Source: Marsupella aquatica (lineage: Eukaryota > Plantae > Marchantiophyta). From it: 64,000 nucleotides of DNA. The notes under the pieces were generated by a model. The model worked only from the letters and a program-made list of their open reading frames with translations. It did not search any database and was not told the origin of the DNA. A program made the position numbers and the translations under genes. Positions 3,920 to 45,399 of this stretch are shown here, one piece after another. Location: assembly GCA_973895155.1 (NCBI GenBank), contig OZ316894.1, positions 16,848,216 through 16,912,215 on the forward strand. Direction: 5' to 3'. The first letter of the stretch is position 1, and every line of letters starts with the position of its first letter.

Positions 3920-4262
3920 TGTTAGGTATTTACTCAAGGTCTAGGGTTACGACATGTAACCATAGTTAGGCTAACCATAGTCGGAGACGTGGTTAGGTTA
4001 ACTAGGATGCACACTATATGCCAAGCGGTGTTTGCTTGGATAAGTGGAACTTAGGCTCATTGTTATGGAGCCACTTGAGAGATGAGGAGAGCTTACACTG
4101 TGGAGACTTGGTATGGCCGACGAGCGTAGAGTTCAATAAAGCTCTCTTGTGTGTTCCCTTGGATGTAGCCTCGAGGAGGTGAACCACGTATCTCTTGTGT
4201 CGACTACTTGTGCGTTGGATGTGTCATGTGCTTACCGTTGCAATTATCGTCTATGCTCAACA
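3920..4262 (+). repeat. 5' LTR of copia element
   Basis: TGTTAGG...CTCAACA, followed by the PBS. Direct repeat of 10366-10708. Confidence 0.95.
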
Positions 4263-6053: not shown

Positions 6054-9000
6054 ATGAGTGATTCGGATGAGATTTTTGAAGACATGGAGCTTGAAACACG
6101 AGGATCACCATGGCGATTTGAGATGGAGAGAGAGGAGCAGGAGGAAGCGAACGTGACACTGGTACGATCATCGGTGCAGCGAGTAGAGGGGGCTGTGAAA
6201 AAAAAGATGGCATCCAGGTTCGGAGGTGTCAAGTTTGAGGTGGAAAAGTATGATGGACGGACGGACTACTTGCTCTAGGAGAAGCAAGTGAAAGGAGTTC
6301 TTTGCGCTATGGGCCTAGATCATCTTCTCTCTACACGAGAGATGTACGATGATGAGGAGGAGATTCCACTAAAGAGGTGGAGGCATGAACAAGTAATTGC
6401 AATGAATGCGATGATGCTTTATCTGAAGCCGCATATCATCAAGAAGTTGGATGACTACGTGGATTGTGCATCTCTATTCAAAGCCCTAAGGAAGAAGTAC
6501 TATTGGGAGGATGCATCAGATTGATTGTACAAGAAGTCTCTTTTGATGAGCCTTAGGCTCAAAGAAGGGAACAAGCTCTAGGATCACTTGGATGAATTTG
6601 ACAGCCTAGCTGTTGATTTATCTAATCTTCGTAATGGCGTTGAAGAAGAGGATAAGGCCTTACTTCTTCTCAGCTCCTTACCCCCATCTTATCAGGGTTT
6701 GAAGCAGATTCTCTTGTATAGAGACCTGAAGTCTATTTCATACGATGAGGTGGTAAGCTCTTTGCTGTCAAATGATGCACAGAAGAAGTTGGATCAAGCC
6801 CAGACAGCATCGTCATTTGATGCTGCCTTGAATGTGAATTGTGGGAGGTCACAACGGCGTTCCGAGCAGCGCATAAATGGCAAAGGACAAAATAAATCTA
6901 GGACAAGATTTGCTTCAAGGGGGAAGTCCCAGGAGAGAAAGCCAGTAGTCTGTTGGAAGTGTCACAAGGTTGGTCACGTTAAGAGGGATTGTAAGGGCAA
7001 GGCAGCTAAATCTTCATCAGCCAATGTAGCTAGTGCTGATGGAGAAGTTGATTTACTCAATGATGAGTATATTTTATGAAGTTAGGAGTATGCCCTGTGC
7101 ACATCATCTAGGAGAGCAAATGATGTGTGGATTCTTGATTGTGCTTGCTCCTTTCACATTTATTACATTCGCGAGTATTTCAATTATTATTCTATGTCAA
7201 ACGATTCAGTTTTGATGGAAAATAATCACTCCTGTCGAGTTGAGGATATTGGGTCTGTAAAGATTCAAATGTTTGATGGCATTGTGCGCACAATGTCTGG
7301 AGTCAGGTTTGTACCTGGCATGCGTAAGAATTTGATTTCACTCGGTGTGTTGGATACAAATGGTCATCAATGGCGAGTAATTGATGGTGAACTTCAAGTC
7401 ATGTTGGGAGAGACAGTGACTTTGAAGGGGAGCAGACAGAAAAATTTGTATGTGTTGCAGGGCAATACAGTATGTGAAGAGGCCAATGTAACCAAGTCTC
7501 ACGAGGAAATGACTCAACTGTGGCATTCACGGCTAGGCCACATGAGTGCTCAGAAGGGTTTGGCTATCTTGTAGAAGAATGGGCTCATTTCTAATTTGCA
7601 ATCTTGTAAATTGGATTTCTATGAGCATTGCATTTTTGGAAAGCAGCATCGTCGTGCTTTCAGTGTTGGAACTCATCGTTCCAAAGCGGTTCTTGAGTAC
7701 AGACATAGTGACGTGTGAGGACCATCCCCGACTCCCTCACATTCTGGAAAATTGTACTATGTATCCTTTATTGACGTTTACTCAAGATTTGTATGGATTT
7801 ATTTCATGACGCATAAGTCTGATGTCTTGTCCATTTTTACAAAGTGGAAGGCCCAAGTGGAGAATCAGATAGGAAACACTGTTAAGTTTTTGGATACAAG
7901 GATGAAGAGTCTAAGGTCAGACAACGGCGAGGAGTACACTTCAATAGAATTTGAAGAGTACTGTGCACGGGACTATGCAGAACAGGGGATAACTCGCCAT
8001 CTCACCACAGTTTATACTCCGCAGCAGAATGGTGTCGTTGAGAGGCTCAATCGAACACTATTGGAGCGGTCATGAAGTATGTTGAGCCAATCACGTTTAC
8101 CACCGGAATTTTGGGCAGAAGCTATCAATACTGCAGATTATTTGGTAAATCTTTCTCCTTCTAGTGCAATCAATTTCAAAATGCCGTTTGAAATGCGTTA
8201 TAAGCGGCAAGCAAACTATCATGGCTTGGTAGTTATTGGAAGTGATGCAATGCTCTCACACCAAAGCAGAATAGGACCAAGTTGGATCCTACGTCCAATA
8301 AATGTATTTTTCTTGGGTATCAAAGTGGTGTGAAGGCCTACAGGCTATGGGATCCTATTGCCTGTAAGCTTGTTGTCAGTAGGGATGTTTCCTTCAATGA
8401 ACCCAGATTATTGAAGGAGGGGGAGAATACTCAGGTCTTCCGTACTGACAAAGGAAAATCTCCTATCCCAGATCTCGTTGAGGGGGAGATTGATCATGAA
8501 GTCCATGATCAAAGAGAATGAGGTGCTCCAAGCATGGAGCTGATTCCTGTGCTAGAGGGACAAGAGGAGTTTATTGATGCTGGTGAGCAGCAAGTGGATG
8601 CTGCTGAGCTTCAAATTGTACCAGTAGACGCAATTCAACCAGAGTCATCGGTTAGAAGAATATCTGGTCGTACTGTACGCGCTCCTCCTAGGTATGGACA
8701 GTGGGTTGATTCATCTCAACTGCAAGAGGACAATTTTGCAGCTGATGATGAGGGTGATGCGTTAATTTTGGAAGAAGGGGAACCTTCTTCATTTCATGAG
8801 GCAAGTGCTTCAAAGGAGAAGCAGAAGTGGACTCCAACTATTAATGCAAACGGCGATGCAGTCACTGAAGGACAACAAAACTTGGGAGCTTGTTAAGCTA
8901 CCTAAGGGTCAGCAAGTGGTGGACAGTAAGTGGATATATAAGTTGAAGGATCAGTCTACGGGAGGTGGATCGAAGGTCTACAAGGCTAGGTTGGTAGCCA

Positions 9001-10168
9001 AGAGATTCACACAGGAAAAAGGTGTGAATTACAATGAGGTCTTCTCACCAGTTGCTAAGTACTCAATAATACGGCTATTGTGTGTGCTTGTTGTAATGTT
9101 TGGTCTGCTGCTAGATCAGATGGATGTTGTCACAACTTTCCTCTATGGCACCTTGGAAGAGGTGATCTTCATGAGACAGCCACTAGGTCGTGTGAAGAGA
9201 GGACAGGAGGAACTGGTTTGCAGATTGCTGAAATCTTTGTATGGGTTGAAGCAGTCACCAAGATAGTGGAACAAGCGGTTTGACGATTGGATTCGGTCAC
9301 AGGGTTTTCACAGGAGTGTGTTTGACCCTTGTGTATATTTGAAACCGGTGAAGAATGCTATTTTTGGGTTCATTGTTTTAGTACTTTATGTGGATGACAT
9401 GCTTATTGCGGCCAAGGATAGGTCTGAAATTGTTAAGCTTAAGGCACTCCTCAGTGCAGAGTTTCCCCTTTGGCTGCACACTTCAAATTGTCATCAGCTT
9501 TTTGTCCCACGAATACGACAGAGAAGGGATTGATGTCAAGGGTTCCTTATGATAAGGCAGTGGGAAGTCTCATGTATTTGATGACTTGCACTAGACCTGA
9601 TCTTGCTATGGCTATGGGCAAGGTGAGCAGGTACATGTCGAATCCAGGGAAGGTACACTGGGAAGCAGTGAAGTGGATTATCAGGTACTTGAAGGGTACT
9701 GTGGATCATGGTCTTTTATTTGATGCAAATGCAAAGAATGCAAGATCATTGATTGGCTATGTAGATTCTGACTATGGACAAGATCTGGACCAAAGGAGAT
9801 CAACAACAGTGTACGTGTTCACATTTGGCGGTGGATGCATAAGTTGGAGGTCTACTTTGCAGAAGTGTATTGCTCAGTCTACTACAGAAGTGGAGTATGT
9901 TGCAGCAGCGGAAGCAGCGAAGGAAGCAATTTGGTTGGATAGTCAAAGTGCGCTCCACCTTGTTGTGAACCAGGTGATGGACAGTAGAGTGAAGCACGTA
10001 GACGTCAGGTACCATTTTATCAGGCAGGTTGTGTCTGATAATTTATTTGAGCTAGTCAAGATAGACAGTAAACTCAACCCAGCTGACGCATTTACCAAAG
10101 TGATTCCTTCGGAAAGTTTCTCTAGACATGGTGATGTGCTTCAGGTTTTGCAATTGCGTCACAAGTAA
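6054..10168 (+). pseudogene. Copia gag-pol polyprotein with multiple stops and frameshifts
   Basis: KFEVEKYDG (gag), CWKCHKVGHVKRDC zinc knuckle, WILDCACSFH protease, LWHSRLGH, integrase LRSDNGEEY/TPQQNGVVER, RT YKARLVAK/LYGLKQSPR/LYVDDMLI, RNase H GYVDSD/KHVDVRYHFIR. Confidence 0.95.
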
Positions 10169-10365
10169 GGGTTTTTCTTAACATTTGTTGTAATTATTGA
10201 TATATGCTCTTCTTCACTCCTAGTAATAGGCTACGGCTTAGTTCTGGTTTGCTCTAGTTAGAGAGGGGAAACCATGTTGGTTTTCGTCCAGAATTTCCCG
10301 CTGAGAAAATAATATAGGTTAGCAGTATTACCCTCCGGCCCCTAGACCAGAGTCAAGGGGGAGAT

Positions 10366-10708
10366 TGTTAGGTATTTACTCAAGGTCTAGGGTTACGACA
10401 TGTAACCGTAGTTAGGCTAAGCATAGTCGGAGACGTGGTTAGGTTAACTAGGATGCACACTATATGCCAAGCGGTGTTTGCTTGGATAAGTGGAACTTAG
10501 GCTCATTATTATGGAGCCACTTGAGAGATAAAGAGAGCTTACACTATGGAGATTTGGTATGGCCGACGGGCTTAGAGTTCAGTAAAGCTCTCTTGTGTGT
10601 TCCCATGGACGTAGCCTTGAGGAGGTGAACCACGTATCTCTTGTGTTGACTACTTGCGCGTTGGATGTGTCATGTGCTTACCATTGCGATTATCGTCTAT
10701 GCTCAACA
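10366..10708 (+). repeat. 3' LTR of copia element
   Basis: Preceded by the PPT. About 17 substitutions versus the 5' LTR by manual count. Confidence 0.95.
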
Positions 10709-12451: not shown

Positions 12452-13856
12452 AATGGGAGCTAGTGAAACAAACCATGAACTATCAATAGATGTGGCTGAA
12501 ATTGTTGTTGCGCAGCCAAGGCCAAAGTTATGGCTTCTGATTGACTCCAACAATGGAGAGCCAAATTGAAGAGGCAGATCGAGAACACATGCAAAATGGA
12601 ATGAGGAGGAGCAGGCATGGTTGGAGAGTGTTGTGATGTCGGGGCCCTTCAATAATAATGAACAGGGGACCAAGAAACAAGGTGGATCAAGGAAAGGGAA
12701 GCACAGGAACTTTGATCGGGACACAGCACAAGGGCATGAGCAAATTTGGAAGGACTACTTTGCTGAATCTCCAGTGTTCACAAACAGACATTTCAGGAGA
12801 AGGTATAGAATGAGAAGACCTCTATTTTGGCAAATTCATGATGTTATTAAAGAGGAAGATCCCTACTTCATCCAGAAACGAGATGCTGCAGGAATTCTTG
12901 GGTTGTCATTGATCCAAAAATTGACTGTTGCTTTGAGAATGCTTTCATTGGGTGTTTCTATTGATGCCCTTGATAAATGTGAGAATTGGGGCGAGCACCA
13001 CCATGAAGTGCTTCAAGAGATTTTGTTATGCTCTTAGAGACCACTTTGAGGAGGAGTACCTTAGACAGCCCACGAAGGAGGACATGAACAAATAATTATA
13101 AATCAACCAACAATGTGGTTTCCCTGGTATGTTTGCATCTTTGGACTGTATGCACTATGAGTGGAAGAACTGCCCAGTGGTTTGACAGGGTCTGTTTACC
13201 AACAAGGACGAGGAGAAATCAATTGTTCTAGAAGCCATAGCAGATCAATCCCTCTAGACTTGGCATGCCTACTTTGGCTTACCTGGTGCACATAATGACC
13301 TAAATGTCCTGGATCGTTCACCTTTGGTAAACAATTTTTTGAAGAGTGAAGCTGATGAGGTTGGGTTTACTGTCAATGACCGACACTATGGCCGCTACTA
13401 TTTGCTTGTTGATGGCATCTATCCAGATTGGTCTATCTTTATTAAAACTATTCAATTGCCACAAGGCAATGCTAGAAAGTGGTTTGCTAAATGCCAAGAA
13501 GGGGCCCAAAAGGATGTTGAGAGGGATTTTGGAGTGCTGCATCAGCGATTTGCAATTGTCAAAAACCCAGTTCAAATGCACTATCAACATGAAATCAAGG
13601 ACATTCTTCTAGCCTGTGTCATTCTACATAATATGATAGTGGAGGACGAGAGAGGTGAGCGATTGCCTGCTGATTGGGACTTCTTGGATAGAGCTAGAGC
13701 TCAAGCAGGAAGAGATCTTGGCAAGCACGAGTGGTCTGAATACTTGGCTGCTACACGAGGTATTGAGGATGCTGAAACTCTTTGAGAAATGACCTTGTAG
13801 CACACCTTTGGGCTCTCAAAGGACAAGGTCACTGTTTTGACTATGTGGGAAATTAG
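12452..13856 (+). pseudogene. Pong-like plant transposase (Plant_tran family)
   Basis: DYFAESPVF...FRRRYRMRRPLF, GFPGMFASLDCMHYEWKNCP, NDLNVLDRSP, YLLVDGIYPDW, KDVERDFGVL, ACVILHNMIVEDE and terminal DLVAHLW. Several stops and frameshifts; the start is approximate. Confidence 0.9.
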
Positions 13857-17362: not shown

Positions 17363-19510
17363 ACCATGTACCATTACAATACAGAACGAGTCCCTTTATA
17401 AACTTAAGAAAGTGAGAATCAATCTTGACCCTTCATCAAAATATTAACTTCTTCACACCATCAGATCTATCCATACACCCTTTCTAAAATAAGTTCCTGC
17501 CCAAACTACCCTTTAGCCTTCCCATACCTGTCACAATGAAATACTTAATTAGAAACTAATTCAATTTCATTCACATATAGATAATTTAGTAGTGGTTGTG
17601 AAGAAAAAAGGCCCTCGTTGTGGACTATTTTATGATAAATAATTGATTTATAGATTGAAGTGAAATAAACATAACGATTGAATTAAATGAGTAAAGTGTT
17701 ATTTATTTATAATTTTCCACAAAACTTAATTGAAATAATATTAAATTATTTTATGATTGTATTGGGCACATGGCAAAATTTGGTTGATCATCTAAAGTTA
17801 TTAGTGTTAAGTGCGATGATATAGGATTTGTATAGATGAATTTTGTTGCTTTGAAGAACACATCTATTTTTCAATCTTTCTACTGGAGATTCTATTTGTA
17901 ATTTTTCTTCTTGAGTTGAAGGTTTAAAGTAGTAACAACTCAGAATCAATTTTTTGACACCAAAACAGTGAGCATTATACAAAGATAAAGTGTTGTGCAA
18001 GTAAAAATTGATATTTTAAAACTCTCCATTCTAGTTAGGACAGTCCTTCCCAGCAAGTCCGATGATCACACTTGGGCATAATAGAAGGTGGGCAAGTGAG
18101 TGGGTCTTCATTAAAACGGGGTATAGAAATGGAAATAATACAGAAAAGTACAGTATGTCCAAGCACCAGATTCACAAGGATATAGATATACTGCCAAGTC
18201 AGTTACTCCATCAAAATGCACAGAATATTTTTAAACTTTGCACGTCAACTCTCTTTGGAGGGTAAACCAGGATTGACTCATTGTCTTCTCCCAACACATG
18301 ATGTTGTGTTCCAAAATTGAATTTTTTTTGTTTCCATGAGCAAAACTTATTTCATTCTGGCGCTGTGTTTTGATGACATTGTAATTTGAATACAATCCCA
18401 CAGGAAGAAGAAGAGAAATGTAGCAGCTGCAAGAAGAGTACAATTGGTTAAATTCTAGCTTATTTGGTATTACAAGGGAAAGCCAAGCTCTTTGGGTTGG
18501 TTGTGTAATTGTGGATATTAATTCCAGGAATTCAAGCCAAATTGGAAGCTAAGCATAAGCAGTGATGGATATATCAGTAATAGATCCACTACCCAAGACA
18601 ATATACTTTAGACTCTGGAAATAATTTGAATGATGGAAAACCTTAACTCTCTTTTTAATTATGTGAATTGCAACAATAAGGATTTCTGTCTTTGGAAGGA
18701 GATAATGCAGAACCAACAATCACAAATGATAAGGAGTAGGACAGCCTTTGACTAATTACTAGGTCCGAGGACCAAAACACACCTGAAATCGAGCAAAGAA
18801 AGAGCATAATAAGGAGCCCCCAAAGTTTAGTTCTCTTCTACCACAATACCAAACGTTTGTGTCCATCCTACTCCTAGCTAGCTTGCACTTCAAAAAAAAG
18901 GAAGAAAGGCCAACCTGGCAACTCCAGATTAGCACTTAAGAAGAGCAAAGACATGACTTTGTGGTAGCTCACTTGAGTAGAAACTGATAGGTCTTGGGTT
19001 CAACTATTGTAACTGACTTTTTCCTTTTCTATGGATCGAGTTTCATAGATTTCCCTTCAAACAAATAAAAAAGAATGAAAAAAAGAGCCCACTATGACAT
19101 TATCGCTGAGCCAGCTTGATGTTCTCATTCTTATTAGCCAGAATGTGAAGCTCAAATCTCACCTCCACGTCTCACTGAGCCAAACTCTTTTCTATCTAGC
19201 ATGGCATCCATGGAATTTACACAATTCCCACCCTGTCATTGTCAAATATCATAATTTGCAATCTTTTTTAGATAAATACTACAATGCCACCTTTTTTTAT
19301 TGTCATGGGTTAACTTAGAGCTGGTTATCGAGCAGAGACCTCAGCCCTAAGATTGTCACGTACATTGGATAATTGGATGGTTTCCATTGGCCTCAGATAA
19401 AGTTCAGACTACTGGTTTATTAGGGCAGGGTTTTGCCCTCCCTGCGGAGTCCACCCCCAACCTTGCCTCACTATTTCCCCAGTGCCCTCCTCCGCCCTCA
19501 AGGTAGGCAT

Positions 19511-19960
19511 CCCCCTGACCCCAGTGTGGACTTGTCTGACAAATAAGGGGTCTGGACCTCGACAAATGACATTAGTCACACCCGACCTGTCCTGGCCCCA
19601 ACCCCAACCCCCGGCCCCAGCTCACACCCCGCCCTGATCTGGCTCCGGCCTGGCCCGACCCGCCCACACCCCGCCCCAAACCTGACCAGCCCCGGCCCCC
19701 GCCTGTGCCGCCCCGCCCCGCCCCTGACCCCAAACCAGGGGGCCGGCTCACTAACCGGGGGAGTCCGGGACCGGACCGGGAGGGGGTCGGGAAAGTTTGG
19801 GACCGGGCCGGGAGAGGGTCAGGAAAGTTCGGGGCCGGCCGGGGAATATTGGAAAATATGCGACAAATGACCCCTTTTGGAGCCACAGCCGACAAATGAC
19901 GTCGGACACGACAACTTGTTCTGTCCGACAATACTACAACTTGTCCGTCAGTTCAAACGG
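19511..19960. mobile_element. Small non-autonomous element or end fragment related to the adjacent 12-kb element
   Basis: Begins CCCCCTG, has repeated GACAAATGA motifs and a C-rich then G-rich core. Positions ~19820-19870 are an inverted homologue of ~20144-20190. Confidence 0.5.
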
Positions 19961-20164
19961 CCCCTGGCGCACTGTCCTTCAAGGGTGATGATTTTCCTAC
20001 GTGAAGGAGAATTGTAGGCCATTTTTTCACCAAACCACAGGGTCACTCAGGGCACAGGACATCCTGCACCCGGTTTGATGTGACGGGCAACTTGCCGAGT
20101 TGCCCGGCACGTAAACTTATCATTTGCCGGCCTGAATTACCCTCATTTGACGCATATTCGCCGT

Positions 20165-21005
20165 TATTCCCCGGCCCGGCCCGAACTTCTCCCGGCCCGA
20201 CCCTAACTCTTCCCGGCCTCTTCCCGGACTCGGCCCAGCCCCTCCCCTACCTCTTGTCACCCGGACCCGGCCCCGACTTTACATCCCGGCCCGGCTCGGG
20301 TGAGGAGGCCTGGCCCGGGTGAAGCGAGGCCCTAGACGAGGGAGGCCCGGCCCGGGTGGAGGGAGGCTTGGATGGGGGAGGGAGGGATGCCCGGCCCGGG
20401 TGAAGGGAGGCCCGGGTGGAGGAGGGAGGGAGGCCCGGCCCGAGTGAAGGGAGGTCCGAGAGGAGGGTGGAGGGAGGCCCGGCCCGGGTGGAGGGAGGGC
20501 CCGGGTGGAGGAGGGAGGGAGGCCCGGCCCAGGTGAAGGGTGGCCCGGGAGGAGGGAGGCCCGGCCCGGGTGGAGGGAGGCCCGGGTGGAGCGAGGAGGG
20601 AGGCCCAGCCCGGGTGAAGGGAGGCCCAGGAGGAGGGAGGAGGGAGGCCCGGCCCGGGTGAAGGGAGGAGGGAGGCCCGGCCCGGGTGAAGGGAGGCCCG
20701 GCCCGGGTGAAGGGAGGCCCGGGAGGAGGGTGGAGGGAGGCCCAGCCCAGGTGAAGGATGGCCCGGGAGGAGGGAGGAGGGAGGCCCGGCCCGGGTGGAG
20801 GGAGGCCCGGGAGGAGGGAGGAGGGAGGAGAAGGGCCCGGCCCGGGTGGAGGGAGGCCCAGGTGGAGCGAGGAGGGAGGCCCAGGGGAGGGAGGAGGGAG
20901 GCCCGGGAGGAGGGAGGAGGGAGGCCCGGCCCGGGTGAAGGGAGGCCCGGGTGGAGGGAGGAGGGAGTCCGGGTGGAGGGAGGGAGGCTGGCGGCTCGGC
21001 CCGGG
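20165..21005 (+). repeat. GC-rich left subterminal repeat array (GGAGGCCCGGCCCGGGTG[AG]AGG units)
   Basis: C-rich tract, then many degenerate G-rich units, ending immediately before TTATAAAG. Confidence 0.9.
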
Positions 21006-21176
21006 TTATAAAGTTGTGGATAAACCCGATTGGGGTAAGGATATCTGCTAATTTTGGGGTGGTATGGATTTCTCGCTTATCTAGTATGTCGACCCCGCTA
21101 AATAAAGAACGTGTCTCCATTATAAATTGTATAAAACCTTGAGTTTTTTTCTTTAGACCAAAGGTAGAGCACTCTA

Positions 21177-23498
21177 TGTAAGGAGGGATGTGACGCCAAT
21201 GACATGGTCCTTATTTTGTAATCTGATTAAGTAGGTTGCTGTATGCAAGGAGTAGCTATTGATATTACATAACAATTAGCAAGATGGCAAGAATAAGGGC
21301 AATCATGGCGTTAAGAGTAGGGAAATAAAAACTATGTCGCGGGTGGTCGACGACCATATCTCTTTCAATATGTCACCAAATCCGGATCTGTAAAGGGCAT
21401 TGGAAAGATCTGGTCAAGGCGAGTAAAATCGATATAAAACACTTGGGAAATGGAGGTGTATTAAGAGAGATACGGCCTGATTAGTGTGACGGGTTAACTT
21501 ATGGCCGGAATTAGCAGATTCGGCTTCAGTTTTGGGTTAACCCAAGCTCGACCACGGCTTAGCTTATGTGAGCACGGCTTCAGCTTAGCTCAGGTAAGCA
21601 CGGCTTCAGCTTAGCTCAGGTGAGCACGGCTTCAGCTTAGCTCAGGTAAGCACGGCTTCAGCTTAGCTTAGGTCAGCACAGCTTCAGCTTAGGCTTAACC
21701 TAGGTTCGGATTAGATTGAACTCGGGTTAGCCTAAACTCGGGCTCAGGTTAGCATAGGTAAGCTCGGGTTCGGGCTCAGCTTAGGCTAGGTTAGCGGATA
21801 GCGGGTAGCGGCCTAACCCGAGACCACGGGTTAGCTCTACTCGGGTTAGATAGGATAGCTAGGTTAGCCGAACTCGGGTTAGCTATGTAACTCGGGTTAG
21901 CGCAGCAGTGAGTACCCCCCTCTCGGTTGCGGGGGCATAACTCTCTGTGTATTTGACCAAATCGGCTATAATTGACCTCGTTGGAAAGAGGAGCTCAAGC
22001 CGCTTCCAACGCTGCTATCCACGCAGCAAATGGTTGAATACAGAAATCGGGAGAGGAGGCGTAAGCTCGCGAAAACCATGGAGGAGGGCCAAATCCGAAG
22101 TACATAGCCAATTCGAGATAGAAATAAAGCTGCGAGTTAGGGTTCAGTAGTTAGAGATAGTGGCGGCTCTGTTAGGGCTGGGATGGGGCTCCAGCAGCGT
22201 AGTACCCAGCCATTTGGGCTCAATATGAGAGTATATAGAGCAGCCCCCCAGTAGAGATGGGGGGGGGACTTCAGTTGTGTGATCTCACTTAGACTGAGTA
22301 GCGGGGAGGAGCTCTGTGCAAGCAAGGCTGGACTTGGACGCTGCGTGTTGGGGAGAGCTTGGTTGTGCTATACTCAGGGAGTAATCAGCCAAGCTTCACA
22401 ACAACGGGTTGCTAGGTTTGCGAGCTGGATTGTGGCTCTTTCTAGTGGGCAGCACAACTGGGTTCTTTTCCCCCGATACAGAGCCTTGGTGATAGGTGAT
22501 GTATTGGTGATTGTAAACTGTGGGGAGGATTTCAATTCGATTTGCGGTGGGCACATTAGGGAGGCTGAGGTACTGATTAAGGGGCAGCAGGAGGAGCATT
22601 TACAGTTCAGTCTGGCAAGGCTACGTGACCCATGGGGAGTCCCGGCCTTTGTCTGGTGGAGAGCACTAAGGGATCTATGGCCAGAGCTGAGCTTGCAGGG
22701 CAAGCGTGAGGCCGGGCCTCATTGCAGTCTGGGGTAGATCGCCGTTAGGCCTGGTACCAGCTTTGAAGTCGAGTCAACTATGCATGCGTAACTTAACGTT
22801 CTGAATTGGAGGTGTGAGATCTGTATGTGCCCCCAAGAATGAAGTGCAGTGAAGGAGGTTGAGTTCAGGATTGAGCTTGCATGGCAAGCACGGGGCTTGC
22901 AGGGCAAGCACGTCACAATCTGGAGGAGACAGCCTTCGGCCCTAGTGTTCGGATCAAGTGTTCTCAGTGAACTATTGTGCACATCTTTGAATCTAATTGA
23001 GTTTTCCTCTCAGGCCTCATTTCTCTCATGGATGTGTGTGTGTGTGAGGCAATCTGAGTGTATGATGGAACTAGCAGCGCCACTGAGAGGTGTACCGGGT
23101 GCATTGAAGCGGGCTGGGTGAGGACTGTCATAGCTCTGATTGTTGAGAGTGGAATGGCAGAGTGGTGGGGCAATGGCTTAGAAGTCCCTAAGCCGGGAAT
23201 CAGTCAGGAGTCACTGGTTTATGGGTACATTCCGGCGGCGGAATAGAAACATACCTATGACAGTAAGCATATGTATAGACCTATGCGCACCGTAGCGCTA
23301 GGCCCTGTGTGTACGGGCCCGATATGAAGACCCCTTCTCACCAGAACTATCATGAGCGCAGATCTGATCCCCAACCTCGGTTCCTTGGGATTGAGCTTGG
23401 GTGATGTGTGATAGAGTCTTGCTATGATAGTCTGGTGTTAAGGGCATAAACTGGTGTTTATCGGCATTCACAACATCCCTTCGTGATCCTCAGGTACA
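21177..23498. mobile_element. Probable solo LTR or non-coding retroelement insertion inside the left arm of the large element
   Basis: ~2.3 kb non-coding block bounded by TGT (21177 or 21189) and ...GGTACA (23498), with internal tandem repeats and a TATA-like motif at ~22232. It has no counterpart in the right arm. The TSD is not resolved. Confidence 0.45.
21571..21692 (+). repeat. 26-bp minisatellite AGCACGGCTTCAGCTTAGCTCAGGT(A/G), ~4.5 copies
   Basis: Directly visible, followed by degenerate CTCGGGTTAG units to ~21900. Confidence 0.9.
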
Positions 23499-24035
23499 AG
23501 GAGATGGTTTTGGCACCCATAGTGACGTTTTTGGTGTTAAGACCCATGTCAATCGCGTGACAAAGGATAGAGAAGACTTTTGTGCGCGCGTGCTTGGAGG
23601 TTTTACTCGGCATGTGGTAATCCGCATAATAATTTTCTTGTTATCCCTTAACAATTTAGTGGTACTTGTGGGTATTGTGAAACAAATTTCGACAATGTTG
23701 ACATTCATGTACGCATGTTTGGAGCTAAGGCTTGACGTGTGATATTTTGCATGATTGTCACTAATTGTCTCATATATTTTCATTATATCAGCAAATGCTC
23801 ATTAAATTATAGATATCACATACGTCGAATAGGAATGTTAACAACCAAAAAACAAAAGAGAACCGCTGTGCGCATGTTTGGAGTTTGACTCGGTGTGTGA
23901 AATTTCACAGTAGTTTTTGTTCTCGTTTTATTGTTGTTACTTCAAAAGACTAACATATCATTGAAATTTTATTAAGTGACTATGTTTAGCGATGTATAAG
24001 AAGACACTTTGTGTGTAAAGTTCTTGTTTTTGATC

Positions 24036-26874
24036 ATGTCTTCCAAAGAAGATGAGTCGGGCAACTCATCAGCTCATTCTACTCCTGTTAGGCATGGTGG
24101 AAATCACAATCGAGATCGTAGTGCAAAATTTTCCCTAGTGTGGAAATATTTTGAACGATGTGATACGCCATCAGCATGTAATGATATTAATCGTATATAT
24201 CGAAGATGCAAATTTTGCAAGAAATATACAACGCATCATGCAACACGAGCAAAAGCACATTTGATGGGAAACATACACAAAGGAGATGTGCCACCTTGCA
24301 CAGGCTTGTATGGAGTTGTTGACTTAGATGACATCAATAGAGTGTACAATGTCATAAAGGTTGACCCATCCATAAAGTACAAACAAAGTGATGGAAGTCA
24401 TGTTGTGTTATCCATGAGAGGTTGTAGGTCATATAACCCATCTTCCAATTCGCAAGCATCAACTCAAGACTCAAATTTTGTTGATCTCGATGAGGATGGA
24501 AATATGAGTCATCAAAGTAGAGCATCAAATTTTGCAAACCCAATCATGGATGCTTATCAAATTCCAAATATAGCTCATTTGGATAAGCTGTGGGCTAAAG
24601 CTTTTTATTCAAGTGGTATTCCGTTCAATGTGTCGGAGAATCCCTTTTTCCGTGAAGCAGTCACAGAAACTTCAAAAGGGATTGTAAATGGATATTCTCT
24701 TCCGGGTATGCGAAATTTGCAAATGAAATTATTGGAAGAGGCTAGAGTTGATCTTACAAAGGACATGACAAAAACAATGAAGGAGGCGAAATCCTTTGGA
24801 TATTCCCTTTCATCTGATGGATGGGAAAATATCCGAAGGGAACCTTTGATGAATGTCATGTTGTTTAGTTCAAAAGGAGACTTCTTTTTGGATAGTTGGA
24901 ACGCTGCACAAGCCGACAAGGAAGATGGGAAGTATCTTGGTGACATGTGGTTAAAATACATAGATGACATTGGCGTCGATCACATCATATAAATTGTTAC
25001 CGATGGGGCGCCTGCAAATTGTGTAGCAGGTGAAGAGATAGTCATGAAAAAATATCCGCATGTGAAGTGGAGTTGGTGTGCTGTCCACGTGTTTAATTTG
25101 TTGCTAGAAGACATGTGTGGCCACAAGAATGTAGTGCTAGATGAGCAAAAAAAATCCATTCAAATTGATTTTTAAGCACTTGAGATGGATAGTTAAAGCA
25201 ATTACATCATCATAAAAGTTGTCTGCAATATTTGTGAGGAAATCTGGTTACAGGAAGTTGTTAAATCCAAATGCAACGAGATTTGCAACAAATTTTTTAA
25301 TGGCGCAGAGAACATTGGAGCTAAGAGGAGCTTTACAACAAATGGTCATTGATGATAAGTAGCAATCCTATCGTGATCGACTGCCAGTTCGACCAAAGTC
25401 ATAGGGGCATATGACGAGGGCAAAGGCAGACGAACTTAAATCGTGGATACAACAAGATACATTTTGGGCTCAAGTAAAATCTACAGTCACTTTTTTCCTT
25501 CCGTTGGTGAAGATGTTGCGGGAATTCGATGGAGTTTCACCATAGTCTCCTTGGCTATATTGGAGCTTGAAAAAAGGAATAGCTAAACTGAAGGGGTGTA
25601 CATTAGTAACGGATTACTTAAAACCAAAGATAATGAAAGTGTATATGGATCGATGAAAATCACTTACTACTGATTTCATGTTAGCAACAGCATATCTGAA
25701 TCCTCAATTTTTCTTCGATGAAGATGCGGCAGGAGATGCAAAACTATATAGAGGCTTCAATGACTACGTTCATAGATATGCAAAATACAAGGTGAAGGCA
25801 GGAATCAACCATGATCAAGATGTGACGACACTTATTTTTGACATCCAAATGCAGGCATTTGAGGCTCAATTTTTTTTGTCAAATTCATCGGTTGCAATCA
25901 GAGAAGCACAATCCAATATTGGGAAATTAAGTTCGGGAGAGTCGTGGCATTTGTATGGAGCTGATTACGCGGAGCTAAGATTGTTGGCCAGAAGAATCAC
26001 GCATCAACAAATGTGTGCATCTTCATGCAAACAAAATTGGAGTTCGTATGACTTTATCCATTCAAAAAGCCGTAACAGGTTGACCAATGATCGGGCAAAG
26101 GACTTGGTTTTTGTATTCACAAATTCGAGGGTGCAAAAAGGGCTCACGAAGGTGAGAAACCCTCATACGTCTATGTACAGACGATATGATGAAAAAACAA
26201 CAACAAATGATGGCCCGAGGCCTACTTCCATAGAAGGAGGTCACAATGAACAACATGGTGTACCATGTGCGGCTCTTGGAGAGGATGACGTGGAGGATTT
26301 TGATACAATTGATGACGCAGATGAGGCTTTGCAAGGATTGTCACTACACAATGATGGTGACATGTTGACTCGTATTCCACCAGATACTGAAATAAGTGAT
26401 GTCGGAGAATGGGAAGATGAAATAGATTTGATGATGTTTCTTACAATTGATGAGTCTCAAATTCAGGATGACGAGGACTACTCATTTGATGCAAACTTTG
26501 TAATGCCTTCCCAACCAAACCCATCATTCACATACCCAACATTGAATCTACAAAATGATGTCCAAGCAAGTACTTCCTACTTATTTCAACGACGAGATGC
26601 TGTGTCAGAGCTCTGTCCAGAGAGAACAACACCCAACTTTTTTGTGCAACCTGATGATGCACAGTGGGGACAACATGCTTCTCCAACACCAAATATGTAT
26701 GAAAGGCAGAACATGACAAATCCATACACATCAAACATACATGCTCGTGTTGATGCATTTCAAGAATATCATAACGCAGATCCGGTCCAATGGATGACAA
26801 GACAATATCAATTCGATCGACAGTTGCAAGAAAATGAGAACAATAACACAAGGCACTTTTCCTCACAACCTTGA
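24036..26874 (+). pseudogene. hAT-superfamily transposase: BED zinc finger + DUF659 + hAT C-terminal dimerisation domain + acidic tail
   Basis: VWKYF...CKFCKK...RAKAHL (BED); AFYSSGIPFNV.ENPFF, LSSDGW, IVTDG...N, WCAVHVFNLLLED (DUF659); NATRFATNF, YLNPQF, ASSCKQNWSSYDFIHSKSRNRL...KDLVFVFTN. Premature stops and a frameshift are present, and the expected CERNWS glutamate reads K. Confidence 0.92.
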
Positions 26875-27142
26875 CTTCTGTTTAGGTATTATATTTAGGC
26901 TAGTACTATACGACAAACTGTGATATACTATACCGGATTGTGCATGTCCTATGCAAGGAATACTATGTAATAAAATCTACGATACTAAACATTGTGTATG
27001 CAATCTAGTCAAATTGGTTCTTCCTATCTTGCATTTTTGCTTTCACTTCCGCCAGTTGCTGACGACGGCGATGGCGACAAATAGATCGCTGCATGTTATG
27101 CTCATCTATTATTGGTCGATTAGCCATTGCATATTCCTTCCA

Positions 27143-28933
27143 CTATTGGAATCTACCACTGAATAACAAATTGTCAAAGTCACCATCTGACAAGTTGTAT
27201 TCATTGACTGTGTAGTTGTCAATGGGCCTTGAATCAATGTGTGCCATTGCAATACTCTCTTGAGTCATATCTTTACTGTCTTGCTGTGTCTCCATTGGTG
27301 GCATTTGTTTCAACAAACCCGGTTGCTCATACTCTCGTTCATGAAATGGTTTCCGGCACCAATATTTCCGGCTCTTCTTCATCCACCTAAACAAGCAAGC
27401 ATGATGCCATAAGTGACCGCATGTTCCCAAAATGGAAACAGATTTGGGACCCCATGGATACAAGCACCAAGTATATCTTCCATCCTTTTCTCGAACAAAT
27501 TGGGCTATACTCTCATTGCTCTTCCACTTGTCAAAAAATTTCTCAACATCTTCAGGATCAACTTCCACATCCGAAAAAAGGTTAGATTATCCCGTAGGAT
27601 CAATCATGTGCAAATTCATATAATTGTAGTTGGTGCATCTTGATTTTTCATTGTCTGACTGACCATCCACCTCAGCAGTGTTCATTTGCTCAATCTCCTC
27701 TTGCAGATTGCTTATGATCACATCTTGTGATGCAACTTGATTCTTCAAATCAAGAATGACTCTATTTGCTTCTTGAACTTGCATCATTTGACTACATTGA
27801 CCATCCTTTTGGGCTAGTTGTTTCTTGAGCATTGCGATCTCCTCCATCTTGTCGTACAGTTGCACCTTGTATTCCTTGACCTCTGAAGTAGTTGCAGTTT
27901 GAATGGGTATTTTTTCCATTGCTTTCATCTTCATAATATTATCTTGCAACTTTGACTTGTAGTAGTCAATGCTGCTAGCTTCACAAAGCTCAAGACAAAA
28001 TTTTGTGCGAAGATTGTTCTCGATCAATTGACCAATCTCTGTGCCCAAACTCTTGCACACAATCTCCATGCTCAGTGATTCTTTCTTTGCATCCAAAACA
28101 CCAGTGAACTTTCCTGGTACATTGTTACTTGTAGAGGCAGCTAGAATGTTTGATTTTTTTTCCACATGTTTTGTTGCACCATAACTTTCGGATTTAGTGA
28201 AGAGTCGTTCCAATGCAGTCGGCTTATCTTTATGATGCACATGAATGTCTTGCGTATCATGTATCTTTCTTTTGGACCCTTTGTTTGTTGCTTGTGCCGA
28301 GATATCTTTCGCAATAGAACTCTTCTTAATTCCCTGTAAATCCAAGACAGACGTATGCACATTGTGAGCCATCTTGCCCTCTTCCGTTTCCCAACGGTAA
28401 TCCACCTTCCACTTAAGGATGAATTCAGCAATTAGGAGTCTGAGAAATGGCGGATAAACCAAACTCGTTTTGCCCTACGCCTTTTTTGGAGCATACTCTC
28501 GAAATTGTTGTTGCCAATGCTTCCCAATCTCCACATGTGTGACCTTCGACATGGTGTACTTCTCTTGCAACCAATACTTTATGGACCACAAAGTCTCATC
28601 ATCAAAAATGATTTTCATAAATTTGTGAAACTCCACACGCGGCATCAATATCTCCAATTCTTTGGCATTGATGGGCCAATCATTGTGAGGAGGTTTCACA
28701 TTTGGCATCGTGATATTCTATTCAACATCTTTGGTGTCCTCTTCCATTTTGGTTTTCCTTTGCTTTGCATGGTTGCTACTCATTCCCATGTCCTCATCCG
28801 TGGGTTGAGAATCTATGGGTTGAGAATCTATTGCAATGTACTCTTCCATAGCATAGTCGTGTAAATCCTAAGCATACCCGTCCTTTGTACAAGGTTTCTC
28901 CTCTTCATCGGATTCCAATTCCCATTTTCCCAT
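27143..28933 (-). pseudogene. Coiled-coil + C-terminal RING-H2-like protein (putative E3 ligase), transposon cargo
   Basis: ORFs 28475-28708, 27587-28462 and 27143-27568 share one frame from ATG 28933 (~596 codons, 4 in-frame stops). There is a heptad-rich region, then YTWC...TCGHLWHHACLFRWMKKSRKYWCRKPF. Confidence 0.75.
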
Positions 28934-29117
28934 ACTTGCAAGATCTACAATGACATAAACATATTTAGCATTCATTCAACATTTAACCATCAAGGTAAAA
29001 ATCGTAACAATACACAATGAAGCAAAGGAGAAAAATATTTAAAGTCATAGGACATGATTAAATAGATGATTATTCATGTCATATTTCATTGTCATTCATG
29101 ATGAAACTATGTCATCC

Positions 29118-30775
29118 CTAATCTCTTAGATAACGACTATTGTGCTGAACTAATCTACAATCCTGGAATGTCCTCATCATTCTCAAACTCCAATGAACAC
29201 AATCCATTCTTTTGGTGACATTAGTGGCCATCATGTCACGTATCATAATCTCCAATTTAGGGCCATGCTCTCTAGCATTCTAACCCCTATTCAAATAACG
29301 TGTCATTGGGGTCATTCCATCCCAATTTTCTGTAAGTAATGTCTCAAAGACATTGCCCAAAGCATATATGTCAGTTGCCTGACTGTACTCTACTGGATCG
29401 GAATGAACTAGCTCAGGCGCCAATTGTGGATATTTTTTTTGATACGCAACAGCTTTCTCTGCAGGGGTGGGCCACATTCGATTCAGTGGTAATGTGCATT
29501 GTGATTTGTGTTTGGACAACCCAAAATCACATATTCCTACATAAACTCTGATTGCCAAATCATCCTCGTGATCAAAGTGAAGAAGAATGTTCCCAAAATG
29601 AAGATCACAATGGAATCGGTCGTGTGCATGCAAATACTGCAACGTCTCCAATAAAGCCATAGCAATCCCCAAACGATGTTCCAAAAAGAGTTTCTTTTCG
29701 GATATGAATGTCACATCCACTTCCGAAGTGGATTGTGTCTTCCCCTTGCTCTTACTCCATTTCCCACACTTATCTATAAAGCTTCCCAAGTCACCTCCAT
29801 TGTAATGATCATAGATAAGTTTGGGTGGATCTTCGATGGTCATTGCCAAGGCCCCAATGATTCCTTTGTGATTCAACCCTCCCATTAGCACTTCTTGTAA
29901 AGTATCTGTTCGTCTTTTGTGTCGGTCTCCATCCTTGAATCGTTTTGCAACTAGTGTTGCATTTTGAGGAATCAATGGGCAATCCAATATATGACATATG
30001 AACACATGTCCTTGGATACCGCTTCCAATGCGATGCAAATTTTGTACTTGCTCCCTCCTCAAGAAATGAATACTCCTGACCATGGAAAGAACTCGTGATG
30101 GACGCGTTCCTCTATCTGCAACTTCCACGCCAATCTCTCCAAACTGCACGACCTTGCTCGCATATTTGACATTACTCTCCGATTTGGCCATTGCTAACTC
30201 TTTGCTCCATTTTGCTAGCAAATCTCTTCTATGTGTGTATAGCCCAGGAACTCCAAGCATGACGGCCCCAGCCTCATCCAAATTGGTTTCCAACTTGTCC
30301 CAAAGATTTATCGCAAAGTTCAACGCCAGATGTTCAACAAATCCACCTGGCTTCTCAAAATTCCTTATTAAGGCAGCAATTTCATCTCGGGTCATGTCTT
30401 CTTCTTTCTCCACAGTCTCATGCATGCAACGCCCCATGTCATTTAAAGGTTTTTGTAACCCTCTGCTCCATGCATGGCATACTTCCTCTGAAAGCCATCC
30501 TGCTGATACTGTGCTGGCAAAGTGTAGGGATATAGAATTTTTTTCTAAATCACAACTAACACATGTTGCCTTCTTTCTTTCAATGCAGCACCAATTGCTC
30601 CTCCTCTGTGTTTCCATTTCCCTAAGGTTTTGCCATGTTTACAGATTTCTAAGGTTTTGTGAGCATTCCTTAGGGCACTGAGGGCATGAGGATCTGGTTG
30701 GTACCCTTCGTTTAGCACGGTCTTCATTGCCTCAAAAAGTCTCATATACTCTACACTCACATGTGCAGCGGCCAT
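29118..30775 (-). pseudogene. Intronless protein kinase (ePK fold) with an unrecognised N-terminal region, transposon cargo
   Basis: IGSGIQGHV, VAKRF, QEV, LNHKGII, YLHAHDRFHCDLHFGNILL, ICDFGLSK, APEL, TDIYALG. Reading through TAG at 29280 gives ...MMATNVTKR (subdomain XI) and a stop at 29118. A frameshift joins it to ATG 30775. Confidence 0.9.
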
Positions 30776-31569
30776 GTTCTCAAGTAACCACAACAAGTTG
30801 TAGGATAAAGAATAGGTGCTTACGGAGTGAGTTGGCTGCTTGCCGAGGGTACAGATGATGCAAGTACAATGAAGCTGGATCAAGAATCCTGAAATGTCAT
30901 TTTACACTTTGTGTTGGTACCAATAATACCCAAGCAATATAATCTAGATATTTGTTCTATTTTTTATTCTTTTATTTAGTACTTTGAAAGTAACAATGAT
31001 GAAGGGGAAAGACAACTATGTGAAATACCACACGCCGAGCCGAAACTCCAAGCATGCGCACAAAAGTGATCTTTTCCTTCAAGTTGTTACATTCCTACTC
31101 CAATCTATGTGAAACCTATAGTTTAGATATCATTTGTAAATGTTGTGAAAATATTTACAAGGAATTGAGATATCCATGCAGAGTACTACACGTCGAGTCG
31201 AAACTCCAAGCATGCGTACATGAAAATCTCTATCCTAGCAAATTCTCCACTCAACTCACAAATGACACTAAACTGTTAAGGCGATATTCGGTTCTCTCAT
31301 ACGAAATACCACACGCCAAGCATAAGCTCCAAGCATGCGCATACGTGAGAACCATAATACCCCTCCAAATTAATACTAAATATGAAAGTCATATATGCAA
31401 TGCAAAACATAGCAAAAAAAACACTCAAAAACAAGGCAACTAAACTCAAAAGTAAACAAAACATGAGGAAAAGCAAGAAAAACTCACCAAAGGCCTTTCC
31501 TGCATTAGAGCCAAGCCAAAGTTAGAGAAAAAGAGAGAGAATGAGAGAAAGTGAGGAGAGCTCCTCACT

Positions 31570-32030
31570 TTATAGGCCCGGTCCCGGTCTGCCCCCCCCC
31601 TCCCCCACCTCGCGAGCCGTCTTCCGGGCGGCCGAGCCCGACCCCCCCGGCGGCTGCCTCCCTCTTTGCGTTTTACTCTCCTTAGGGTCCGAGGGCCGGG
31701 GGCTTTTGGGTCCCGGGCGGGGGGGGGGGGGGGGCTTTAGGGTCCAGGCCGGGGGCTTTAGGGTCCGGGGTGGGGGGGGGTCTTTAGGGTCCGGGCCGGG
31801 AGGGTGCAGGGTCTGGGGCCGGGGGCTTTAGGATCCGGGCCGGGAGGGTGAGGGGTCCGGGGCCGGGGGCTTTAGGGTCCGGGGCGGGAGGGGTTTAGGG
31901 TCCGGGCCGGGCCGGGGGGGTTTAGGGTCCGGGGCCGGGAGGGAATAAGGTCCGAAGCCGGGTCAGGACCGGGACTTCTACTCAGGCCGGGACCGGAGGA
32001 TGTACTCGGGCCGGGACCGGATGATGCCGA
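31570..32030 (+). repeat. GC-rich right subterminal array containing TTTAGGG heptamers
   Basis: Repeated GGCCGGGGGCTTTAGGGTCC-like units, with a minus-strand TATA (CTATAAAG) at ~31568-31575. Confidence 0.88.
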
Positions 32031-32385
32031 CTGGGAGAGTCCGGGTGTCGGTTTGCCGGTTGACGGCCTTAAAACGGCCTATTTGCCGGGCAAGTCCAAA
32101 CCGGGATCCTACACCTCTGTGGTCCCCCTCACTGGAGAATCTGACTATTATTATCACACCCTTGAAGCAGAGTGCGCCAGGGGGGAATCCCAAAACTACA
32201 AAATATCTGAAATATCAAATTTACTGCAATCCAGCTCTTAGGAAATGTGGTCTATGGGGGTTTCAAAGACCAACCTTGTGGTCCATGGGGGCTTGAAACT
32301 CGGATTCTGAGAGAAGATATGATTACTGTAATTTAGAGAGGATTGCAGATTTGCAGATCGACAGTTCGTGTGTCGAGAATTGGAT

Positions 32386-38400: not shown

Positions 38401-39664
38401 CTAAGCAAATGCAGACTCAGATATTTGCCATGCTCCCCAACCACTTCACTAGTATCTATTCTATCTAATCTGAAGCTTTGGTGATGTATCCAAGGAAAGG
38501 AATTTCCCTTCAAATAATGTGATATTGTGAAATATGATCATCTAAGATTTCTTTAACTTGAAGGTTGTAATACAAGTCAAGTCACTAGTAAGGTGACTCA
38601 GAGGGTTGAGTGTGCAATAGTTTATTCTCTGGACTGACTGCAAACTATGGTGTACATGGCATGGTTTCAGTTTTTTTCTTGGATCCAATTTTCTCATATG
38701 CTAGTGGCCCCTTAAACCTTTATCTATGGTATCTTTAAGTTTGTCTGCCAAATTACAGGCCTCAACATATCGTATTCTCCCACATGTCCATTTTTATGAT
38801 TAGCTAAAGATGATGAGGGCATGCTGCCAGCATTAGGATATATCTTAACTAATAAAATGCAATGCAATCTAGTGAGGCCTCTAGACTGTAATTCTCAATT
38901 GGAAAAAAACTGAAAAGCGAGGGTGGACCAAAAAGAGGAATGGGAGAAAACATTAACAAAACTGACATTGACTCTATATTATGACAAAACTAAGAGTGAT
39001 TCTCAATAAAGACAGAATAGAAGTGAGGGTGAAAAAATAGGGATGGAGGCAAAGATGAACAAGAGCATCTTTATGCTACAATATTTTTTTTGGTCTTCAT
39101 CTCTATTTACATTCAAAGAACGGGTAATCGGGCTAGTTTGTAGAATTTCAAACATGCATTTGTAGCCAATCATACCACTCCATATATAGATTGGGCGGAC
39201 AAATTGAGGTGCGGCCTCCTAATCTATGGCAATTAAACAACCTAAAAGTATGGTAAAGTTTGTACATACGCCTCCTACCGTAAACATGTTGAAGTACTGC
39301 CAACTTTTGTATTTCATAGCAAGATAGGCTCACCATTATCATAATCATTAAACGGGGTGTGGTCCAATATGATGCTGCTTGTTGGGTGTTATGCTCTGGT
39401 TAATTTGGTTAGGTATTTTATAGATATCACATGCGAGGTTGACAGGAATTGAAATATTTAGTTTAGGGTTTATTTTCTAAATTTTAATGTATATTTGACT
39501 TTATAGAAAGTAGATAATTAAAATAATAATTCATTTTGTAAGATATGTACTCATAAGCTAGAGTTACTCTATAACCATAATTAGTCTAATCATAATTAGA
39601 TATTTGATCAAGATTAGACATGCTGGAGCCTTAATATATAGACAAGCAGAAGTTAGCTAGCAAA

Positions 39665-44591: not shown

Positions 44592-45065
44592 CTACTCTTC
44601 GCTCGGTTGGAGACACTTCTCGACCATTTCCACAAGATGGGGGTTCTCTAGAGCAGCTGCCACCCTCTCCTTGTCATTCAGCTGCTTGTTGACGGCTGGC
44701 TCCGAGGAATGCGATCCTGGAGCAACCCGGATGTCGACCTTGAAGCGCTGCGGCAGGGAGCGTAGCAATTTGACCCTTATACACAGCCCGATCACAGTTG
44801 CCATGCTGCAATGTTGGACAGTCGGCGTGAACGTGACCGTAACATGACTCCTCTTGTCGTCGACGTCGATGGAATCCTCAGAGACCACATTCAGCTGCTC
44901 CAGCGAGTATGGATGCTCTGGATCTGTGATGTCCCTCACGTGCTCGAAGATTTCCTCCGCGTCAAATCTATCAACACTGCTCTCATCGGCGTTGTCCACT
45001 CTGGTTGGCCGCACTTTGGTTTGGTGGATCACAGGATTCGCATTGATCAAGGCCGCAGGTGCCAT
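44592..45065 (-). CDS. AE7: MIP18/CIA2/FAM96B family cytosolic Fe-S assembly protein (AE7-like), single exon, 157 aa
   Basis: [65 protein letters not shown]. Confidence 0.95.
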
Positions 45066-45399
45066 CTTCGCTCGCTTGTGGAAAGCAATTCGTAGCTTTT
45101 TCCCAACCCACTACTCTTACAATCTCCAAATCCTTCAAAATCACTCACCCACTTTACTCACCCACTTTCCCTCCAGTGAGTTGATTCCAAGGTAGTACCG
45201 GAAATACTCGGCCGCAAGAGTACTGAAGAATTGTGAACTTCTGGGATGTCCAATACAGCGTTTTTTGTTTAGTGGCGGATATTTGCCCGGAAACGACAGG
45301 TAGAGTAGCCTAGGCATATGAGAATGGGGATAAGCAACTAGCCTAACAATTTTGGGCAGAAGGAAAACTAGCTGTACGATTTTTGATACAAGGTTTATA

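Follow-up and report, generated by a model that had tools for sequence, protein, structure and literature searches.

A decayed three-gene hAT transposon with atypical terminal bases and target site duplication in a single copy from the liverwort Marsupella aquatica

DUF659-type plant hATs, which we take to be Tag1-like, are characterized by a transposase combining the DUF659 (PF04937) and hAT-dimerisation (PF05699) domains, by short terminal inverted repeats (TIRs) and by subterminal repeats. In general, hATs generate target site duplications (TSDs) of 8 bp, and lineages with 5-, 6- and 7-bp TSDs are described in PMC12730594, while PMC6004678 gives 8–9 bp for hATm. The length of the TSD and the terminal bases reflect the target spacing between the two active sites and, according to PMC4455052, non-autonomous elements are classified by their ends and TSD. 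Here we describe an element occupying positions 19961–32183 of a 64-kb stretch of the M. aquatica genome, referred to below as the window (assembly GCA_973895155.1, contig OZ316894.1, positions 16,848,216 to 16,912,215, forward strand). It is the defunct remnant of a transposon of the cut-and-paste kind with a DUF659-type hAT transposase gene, 12.2 kb long (9.8 kb without a later insertion at 21189–23562), and shares the domain pair, short TIRs and subterminal repeats of the DUF659-type plant hATs, whose transposases are 24–34% identical to its own. It can be summarized as a decayed three-gene transposon with a hAT enzyme whose terminal bases and TSD are atypical in this one copy. In the reading which we favour, with a probability of about 0.5, it represents a divergent hAT lineage with its own CCCC...GGGG ends and an enzyme that duplicates only 2 target bases.

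The left junction reads TCAAAC-GG followed by CCCCTGGCGCACTGTCCTTCAAGGGTG, with the TIR starting at 19961, and at the right junction CACCCTTGAAGCAGAGTGCGCCAGGGG, with the TIR running up to 32183, is followed by GG-AATCCC. The arms are 27 nt each and pair at 25 of 27 positions across a spacer of 12,169 nt, far beyond chance, and the 27-bp TIRs with GG on either flank reported in the initial annotation are thus borne out. In the window the exact 13-mer CCCCTGGCGCACT is confined to the two TIR sites, and no further TIR-like site (at least 15 of the first 20 TIR bases) was found there besides the two arms. As that annotation also cautioned, the G run, which is 6 long on the right (32180–32185), leaves the boundary ambiguous; 19961/32183 is the sole flank-duplicated pair having 10/10 terminal pairing.

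At the TIR register the flanks agree at 2/2, 1/3, 0/4, 0/5, 1/6, 2/7, 3/8, 2/9 and 2/10 positions, and this copy therefore shows no 5–9-bp flank duplication there. The missing 8-bp duplication, also recorded initially, holds for shifted ends as well: over 18 symmetric offsets, from -12 to +5, the best candidate has 5/8 matches (offset -3) and its outermost three bases are all unpaired. Six stops in 2,355 nt of the transposase core correspond to 5–8% change per copy. A decayed 8-bp TSD would keep 3/8 or fewer matches with P 0.0001–0.01 at 7–20% pairwise divergence and is ruled out (P at most 0.01), and TSDs of 5, 6, 7 or 9 bp fare no better under the same decay. Since decay cannot hide a 5–9-bp TSD, what remains is a short duplication or the replacement of one flank. 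A 2-bp TSD would survive such decay with P 0.64–0.86, compared to 0.066 for agreement by chance.

The enzyme itself is of hAT type. The transposase pseudogene matches DUF659 with E 2.4e-27 (Pfam) and retains the DGW, TDG, CAVH and TRF motifs, with the final catalytic E reading as K. Dimer_Tnp_hAT lies below the cut-off in the decayed copy (E 0.0024) and reaches E 3e-9 in the intact P0019; a CxxH DDE transposase with a C-terminal dimerisation domain, as in other hATs, is thus present. Intact homologs were found (P0001/P0019 and P0002/P0020), of which P0001 and P0002 are 58% identical across the N-terminal part of the transposase. A structure model of P0001 (mean pLDDT 63) has Hermes as its top Foldseek match (E 5.6e-10) and so shows a Hermes-like fold, and a profile alignment with Hermes places CxxH, TR(W/F) and (S/C)ER in register.

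The 27-bp TIRs together with GC-rich repeats at both ends are also typical of hATs. The extremities are not: the terminal bases are CCCC at both sides instead of (C/T)A, complete relatives begin with CA, and the hAT TSD of 8 bp (5–9 bp in described subgroups) is lacking in this copy. piggyBac elements have CC..GG ends and a TTAA target, and here the flanks are ACGG and GGAA. MuDR/Mutator elements carry a 9-bp TSD and a MULE transposase, and here the flank match is 2/9 and the transposase is DUF659/hAT. The initial annotation had attributed CCC...GGG ends with 2-bp TSDs to some CMC elements. We could not confirm this: in PMC12730594 the CMCT clade has mostly CA..TG ends and 2–5-bp TSDs, and in PMC6004678 CMC MITEs (miniature transposable elements with inverted repeats) have CAC..GTG ends and 2-bp TSDs. 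The CCCC..GGGG termini therefore depart from both, and GG/GG fits the length of a CMC/EnSpm TSD, with P 0.066 for agreement by chance. No Pfam family for a CMC transposase was found in the six element stretches scanned, short leftovers elsewhere lying outside the scan.

Comparison of the two arms suggests that they are old inverted homologs, extending from the subterminal repeats through the TATA box and intron up to the genes. When the insertion at 21189–23562 is deleted in silico, the TATA box, the leader and a 370-bp block align between the arms; this block, 70% identical between its copies (E 1.7e-29), lies upstream of the transposase on one side and of a kinase gene on the other. On these sequence grounds the ends and the genes form one unit. 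A nested hAT bounded by the 370-bp repeat was considered and rejected: its edges carry no 6–10-bp duplication or near-8-bp pair, and the two 5-bp matches seen in a 30x35 grid are no more than chance would give. The candidate classes for the later insertion are a solo long terminal repeat (LTR) or a Ginger-like element. It contains 26-bp tandem repeats at 21557–21692, and a 28-bp look-alike of its part 21481–21508 is found at 19297–19324. Coordinates of all features are collected in the table.

Table. Coordinates of the element, its flanks and the related metagenome contig L005 (positions in the window unless preceded by L005).
Feature	Position	Strand	Basis or remarks
Left TIR, 27 bp	19961..19987	+	read from sequence; first bases CCCCTGGCGCACT
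Right TIR, 27 bp	32157..32183	-	read from sequence
Left-flank GG, candidate 2-bp TSD	19959..19960	.	flank comparison
Right-flank GG, candidate 2-bp TSD	32184..32185	.	flank comparison
Relic of a related non-coding element	19477..19960	-	opposite orientation; resembles the two subterminal regions at 60-75%; ends at junction
Left subterminal GC-rich repeats	20143..21005	+	CCGGCCCGG x12 in 19961-21010; 44/88-bp higher-order periods
Right subterminal GC-rich repeats	31575..32110	-	inverted relative to left
Inward TATAAA	21007..21012	+	likely promoter of transposase unit
Inward TATAAA	31569..31574	-	aligns with left TATA box
Later insertion, 2,374 bp	21189..23562	.	ends TGT...ACA, inverted match of 20/30 between them; flanks AGGGA/AAGGA duplicated at 4/5
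370-bp inverted homology, left copy	23586..23953	+	within putative leader intron
370-bp inverted homology, right copy	30976..31340	-	
DUF659 + hAT-dimerisation transposase pseudogene	24036..26874	+	core: 6 stops, 1 frameshift (about 25150-25185)
ORF2 pseudogene, C-terminal RING-like finger	27143..28918	-	4 stops; putative start
Protein kinase pseudogene	29121..30775	-	HCDLHFGN loop, DFG, APE; single frameshift at about 30400-30460, single internal stop
MenB (DHNA-CoA synthase)-like host gene	32386 onward	+	start codon 32386; exon match E 5e-16
L005 DUF659 transposase frame, 1,084 codons	L005:228-3479	+	
L005 RING ORF, 780 codons	L005:4175-6514	-	

Two further genes are carried by the element. 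The RING match of ORF2 is weak (Pfam E about 0.001, below the cut-off), but the pairing of a transposase with a RING gene recurs elsewhere. A metagenome scan confirmed 491 stretches, of which the best 80 were retained; two of these 80 loci, L004 and L005, show ORF2, most contigs being too short to tell. L004 and L005 are overlapping contigs, 99.75% identical, and so represent one family. On the + strand they carry an intact DUF659 transposase, 28% identical to that of the window, and on the opposite strand a 780-aa ORF2 with a RING finger, whose RING region in L005 matches window positions 27466–27299 with E 1.3e-7 and 44% identity over 57 aa. Both outer sides show C-rich repeats and TATA-like boxes. 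L005 is apparently an intact two-gene hAT with the transposase and RING ORF facing each other, and, since these contigs share the layout, the pair is old and native to the hAT group of the window element. No TIR pair was found in L004 and L005; a candidate end of L005, GGGCACAAGGGG at 7028, is TIR-like at 9/12 positions, a weak hint.

The kinase reads HCDLHFGN where HRD is usual in the loop. Eleven other proteins of its family scored above 250 bits or were named, and 2 of 12 matches, one at 74% identity, are from the liverwort Calypogeia fissa, which points to a liverwort as the probable host. The family is diverse (47–74% identity) and includes at least three C. fissa proteins, the kinase genes of that species including CAM6102880.1, CAM6111938.1 and CAM6110930.1; it may possibly have spread as transposon cargo. 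No kinase was seen beside any of the 80 DUF659 loci, most of whose contigs are too short to tell, and a search with the kinase alignment gave no more copies. As a guess, the targets of the RING protein and the kinase could be host silencing or the turnover of the transposase.

The relatives were placed in a quick maximum-likelihood tree with a midpoint root, whose 39 rows comprise the window, 13 proteins and 25 of the 80 loci. The window transposase falls in a 4-row clade with a branch of 1.41 and SH-aLRT support of 100, which joins 13 rows including L004/L005 (support 98). A separate 18-row clade (support 99) holds the four complete DUF659 elements found among the 80 loci (L043, L049, L070 and L074), each of which has CA...TG termini and a TSD of 8 bp. 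That the 8-bp elements belong to a separate clade counts for a distinct geometry in the lineage of the window element. A further nine-contig family has CAATG...CATTG ends; none of its seven two-ended contigs has agreeing flanks, and two cross-contig pairs share 8 bp, both as read by eye. In these contigs (L023, L035, L039, L041, L046, L050 and L054), collapsed copies of one hAT family, the two flanks derive from separate insertions, and the 8-bp TSD is visible only across contigs.

Faced with the mismatch between enzyme and ends, the initial annotation offered a choice between altered cleavage geometry and a hAT core carried by the ends of another superfamily. The element does depart from canonical hATs, and of the two options the altered geometry is better supported. 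A CMC/EnSpm-type or other shell that had picked up a hAT cassette and been mobilized in trans by a different transposase making a 2-bp TSD would be compatible with the subterminal repeats and with the TSD length typical of the CMCT clade, and cargo-gene exchange between superfamilies is reported in PMC12730594. We nevertheless consider such foreign ends very improbable: the arms are integral with the genes, which their homology reaches, the hAT clade has the transposase and RING layout as its own, as the recurrence in L004/L005 shows, no CMC domain was found in the ORFs scanned, the ends are CC rather than CA, and no inner TIR or TSD marks a nested hAT. Overlooked in that choice was the loss of one flank through adjacent deletion or rearrangement, a possibility made relevant by the left flank, which is what remains of a related element. 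An ordinary hAT with unusual ends and a 5–9-bp TSD would then have lost one flank by adjacent deletion, recombination or mis-assembly, GG/GG being a chance match at the 0.066 level. hATs can cause adjacent deletions, all four complete DUF659 elements among the 80 loci have 8-bp TSDs, and the collapsed family, with 0/7 agreeing flanks by eye, illustrates that mismatches do arise. We regard this explanation as unlikely, though to be taken seriously, as it requires two independent events (loss and chance match), both TIRs are complete, and the 8-bp elements belong to another clade. A footprint of another short length is improbable. The G run would permit 0 or 1 bp (1/1 at offset 0), or 3 bp with CCCTG...CAGGG ends (GGC versus GGG, 2/3 at offset +1), and the empty-site alignment to the homologous arm cannot tell 0, 1 and 2 bp apart. 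But the 2-bp reading is free of mutations and is favoured about 10–13 fold over 0 bp (0.64–0.86 versus 0.066), and the 3-bp version requires a transversion plus a chance C-G pair.

The relic bears on these alternatives in both directions. Positions 19517–19958 match the subterminal regions of the element itself in inverted orientation and diverged form (E 6e-14 and 5e-10), with a global score of 94 compared to a shuffled mean near 0. This likeness stops exactly at the junction, as a lost flank would predict, and the continuation of the relic expected in the right flank, the corresponding arm, is at chance (P 0.55). There is a loose continuation of the relic in the right flank at P about 0.05, a weak hint against flank loss, and the other arm gives P 0.004–0.02, with an endpoint picked post hoc. 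On its intact side the relic likeness also fades in the outer 80 bp (P 0.15–0.37), so that the absent continuation is no proof of deletion. A candidate start of the relic, TT/CCCCAG at 19477, is weak only. Its best TIR-like sites, a weak hint of a second instance, are the run of CCCC at 19477 and one of G at 32256–32260, with TT beside each. Between the element and the MenB start, at 32245–32291, there are two copies of the sequence TGTGGT(C)(T/C)ATGGGGG with a spacing of about 31 bp.

Several observations weigh against a 2-bp hAT. Random dinucleotide pairs from the window agree with P = 0.066 and, because of this, GG/GG agreement alone is weak evidence; the TSD rests on one insertion, and one copy cannot prove it. 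Besides the abrupt end of the relic likeness, the P of 0.55 for its expected continuation and the post hoc endpoint of the other arm, the nine junction bases give P 0.05 against one arm and P 0.92 when summed over three. The relic ends, tried as a second instance, were rejected as not significant (P 0.09–0.29 and 0.11–0.17), and the downstream G run belongs to the 31-bp-spaced repeat. The promoter-level alignment of the arms scores 35, equal to the best of 200 shuffles (35). Every complete DUF659 element found has an 8-bp TSD; in the combined 17-row group no row has both ends or a measured TSD, and the tree is a quick, midpoint-rooted search. L001, at 62% the only close locus, consists of 1.6 kb of coding sequence and lacks ends. 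The TIR pattern gave 0 matches in metagenome contigs and 0 in viral contigs, and the transposase alignment gave 0 matches in viral and prokaryote contigs. No 2-bp TSD appears in the passages compared on hAT5, hAT6, hAT7 and hATm, nor does a 2-bp hAT in the literature searched; Repbase Reports and most subscription journals were outside its coverage, and the family may already be catalogued.

If the divergent lineage with a 2-bp stagger is real, each arm would provide an inward-facing promoter plus leader intron, and the GC-rich subterminal repeats would serve as transposase binding sites. The transposase would cut at the TIRs via the hAT hairpin route and join the ends to phosphates of the target that are spaced by 2 rather than 8 bases, the target here being GG. 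The landing site would have been the subterminal region of an older relative, and the copy would then have gained the 2.4-kb insertion and undergone 5–8% decay. The wider proposal, that a liverwort-centred lineage of large multi-gene hATs, with transposase, RING protein and kinase expressed from terminal promoters in mirror image, changed both its terminal bases and its stagger from 8 to 2 bp, we put a little short of even odds.

The MenB-like gene lies about 200 bp from the right TIR, placing the element in its upstream region. Elsewhere in the window, an LTR pair at 3919–4262 and 10365–10708 (95% identical, spanning 3919–10708) encloses a remnant at 9443–10168, presumably a Copia-like reverse transcriptase/RNase H judging from its translation. 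Remnants of PIF/Harbinger-type transposases (DDE_Tnp_4, Plant_tran) occur at 1369–2679 and 13258–13785, and no clear ends were found for them. A 280-bp inverted repeat (76%) at 38871–39148 and 50549–50805, about 11.4 kb apart, encloses an intronless FeS-assembly (MIP18/AE7-like) ORF at 44592–45110; the pair could be two opposed MITE copies or delimit a captured gene. An intronless two-repeat MYB gene is located at 55768–57390 on the - strand.

If the 2-bp duplication is confirmed, it would be the shortest among hATs found described, where known shifts are to 5–7 or 9 bp; end-based classifiers would misfile such elements as EnSpm. A 2-bp hAT would presumably need much sharper target bending, and would offer a natural enzyme pair for finding the determinants of stagger, intact homologs being at hand. 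Whatever the TSD proves to be, the searches made did not meet with a hAT clade that combines a conserved RING gene on the opposite strand with promoter arms in mirror image.

Among known systems, the complete DUF659 hATs found differ in size and ends: they are 3.3–4.1 kb long with CA...TG ends and an 8-bp TSD, whereas the window element is 12.2 kb long, has three genes and CCCC at its ends, and its TSD is apparently 2 bp. Hermes (PDB 4D1Q, 6DWW and 8SJD) is the best structural match of P0001 and its motifs align, at only 13–15% identity and with a model that is silent on target stagger. CACTA elements have subterminal repeats and a second gene. MuDR/Mutator elements resemble the window element in layout, two genes reading inward from homologous terminal promoters in MuDR, but not in the 2/9 flank match, the near-perfect TIR of just 27 bp or the hAT transposase. 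The CMC/CMCT elements (EnSpm/CACTA, Mirage, Chapaev, Plavaka and ESTA) have 2–5-bp TSDs, with ends that are mostly CA..TG and another transposase. In hAT5, hAT6, hAT7 and hATm, which are absent from our tree, TSDs of 5, 6, 7 and 8–9 bp provide a precedent for shifts of TSD length within hAT, and hAT7 families can carry an extra gene.

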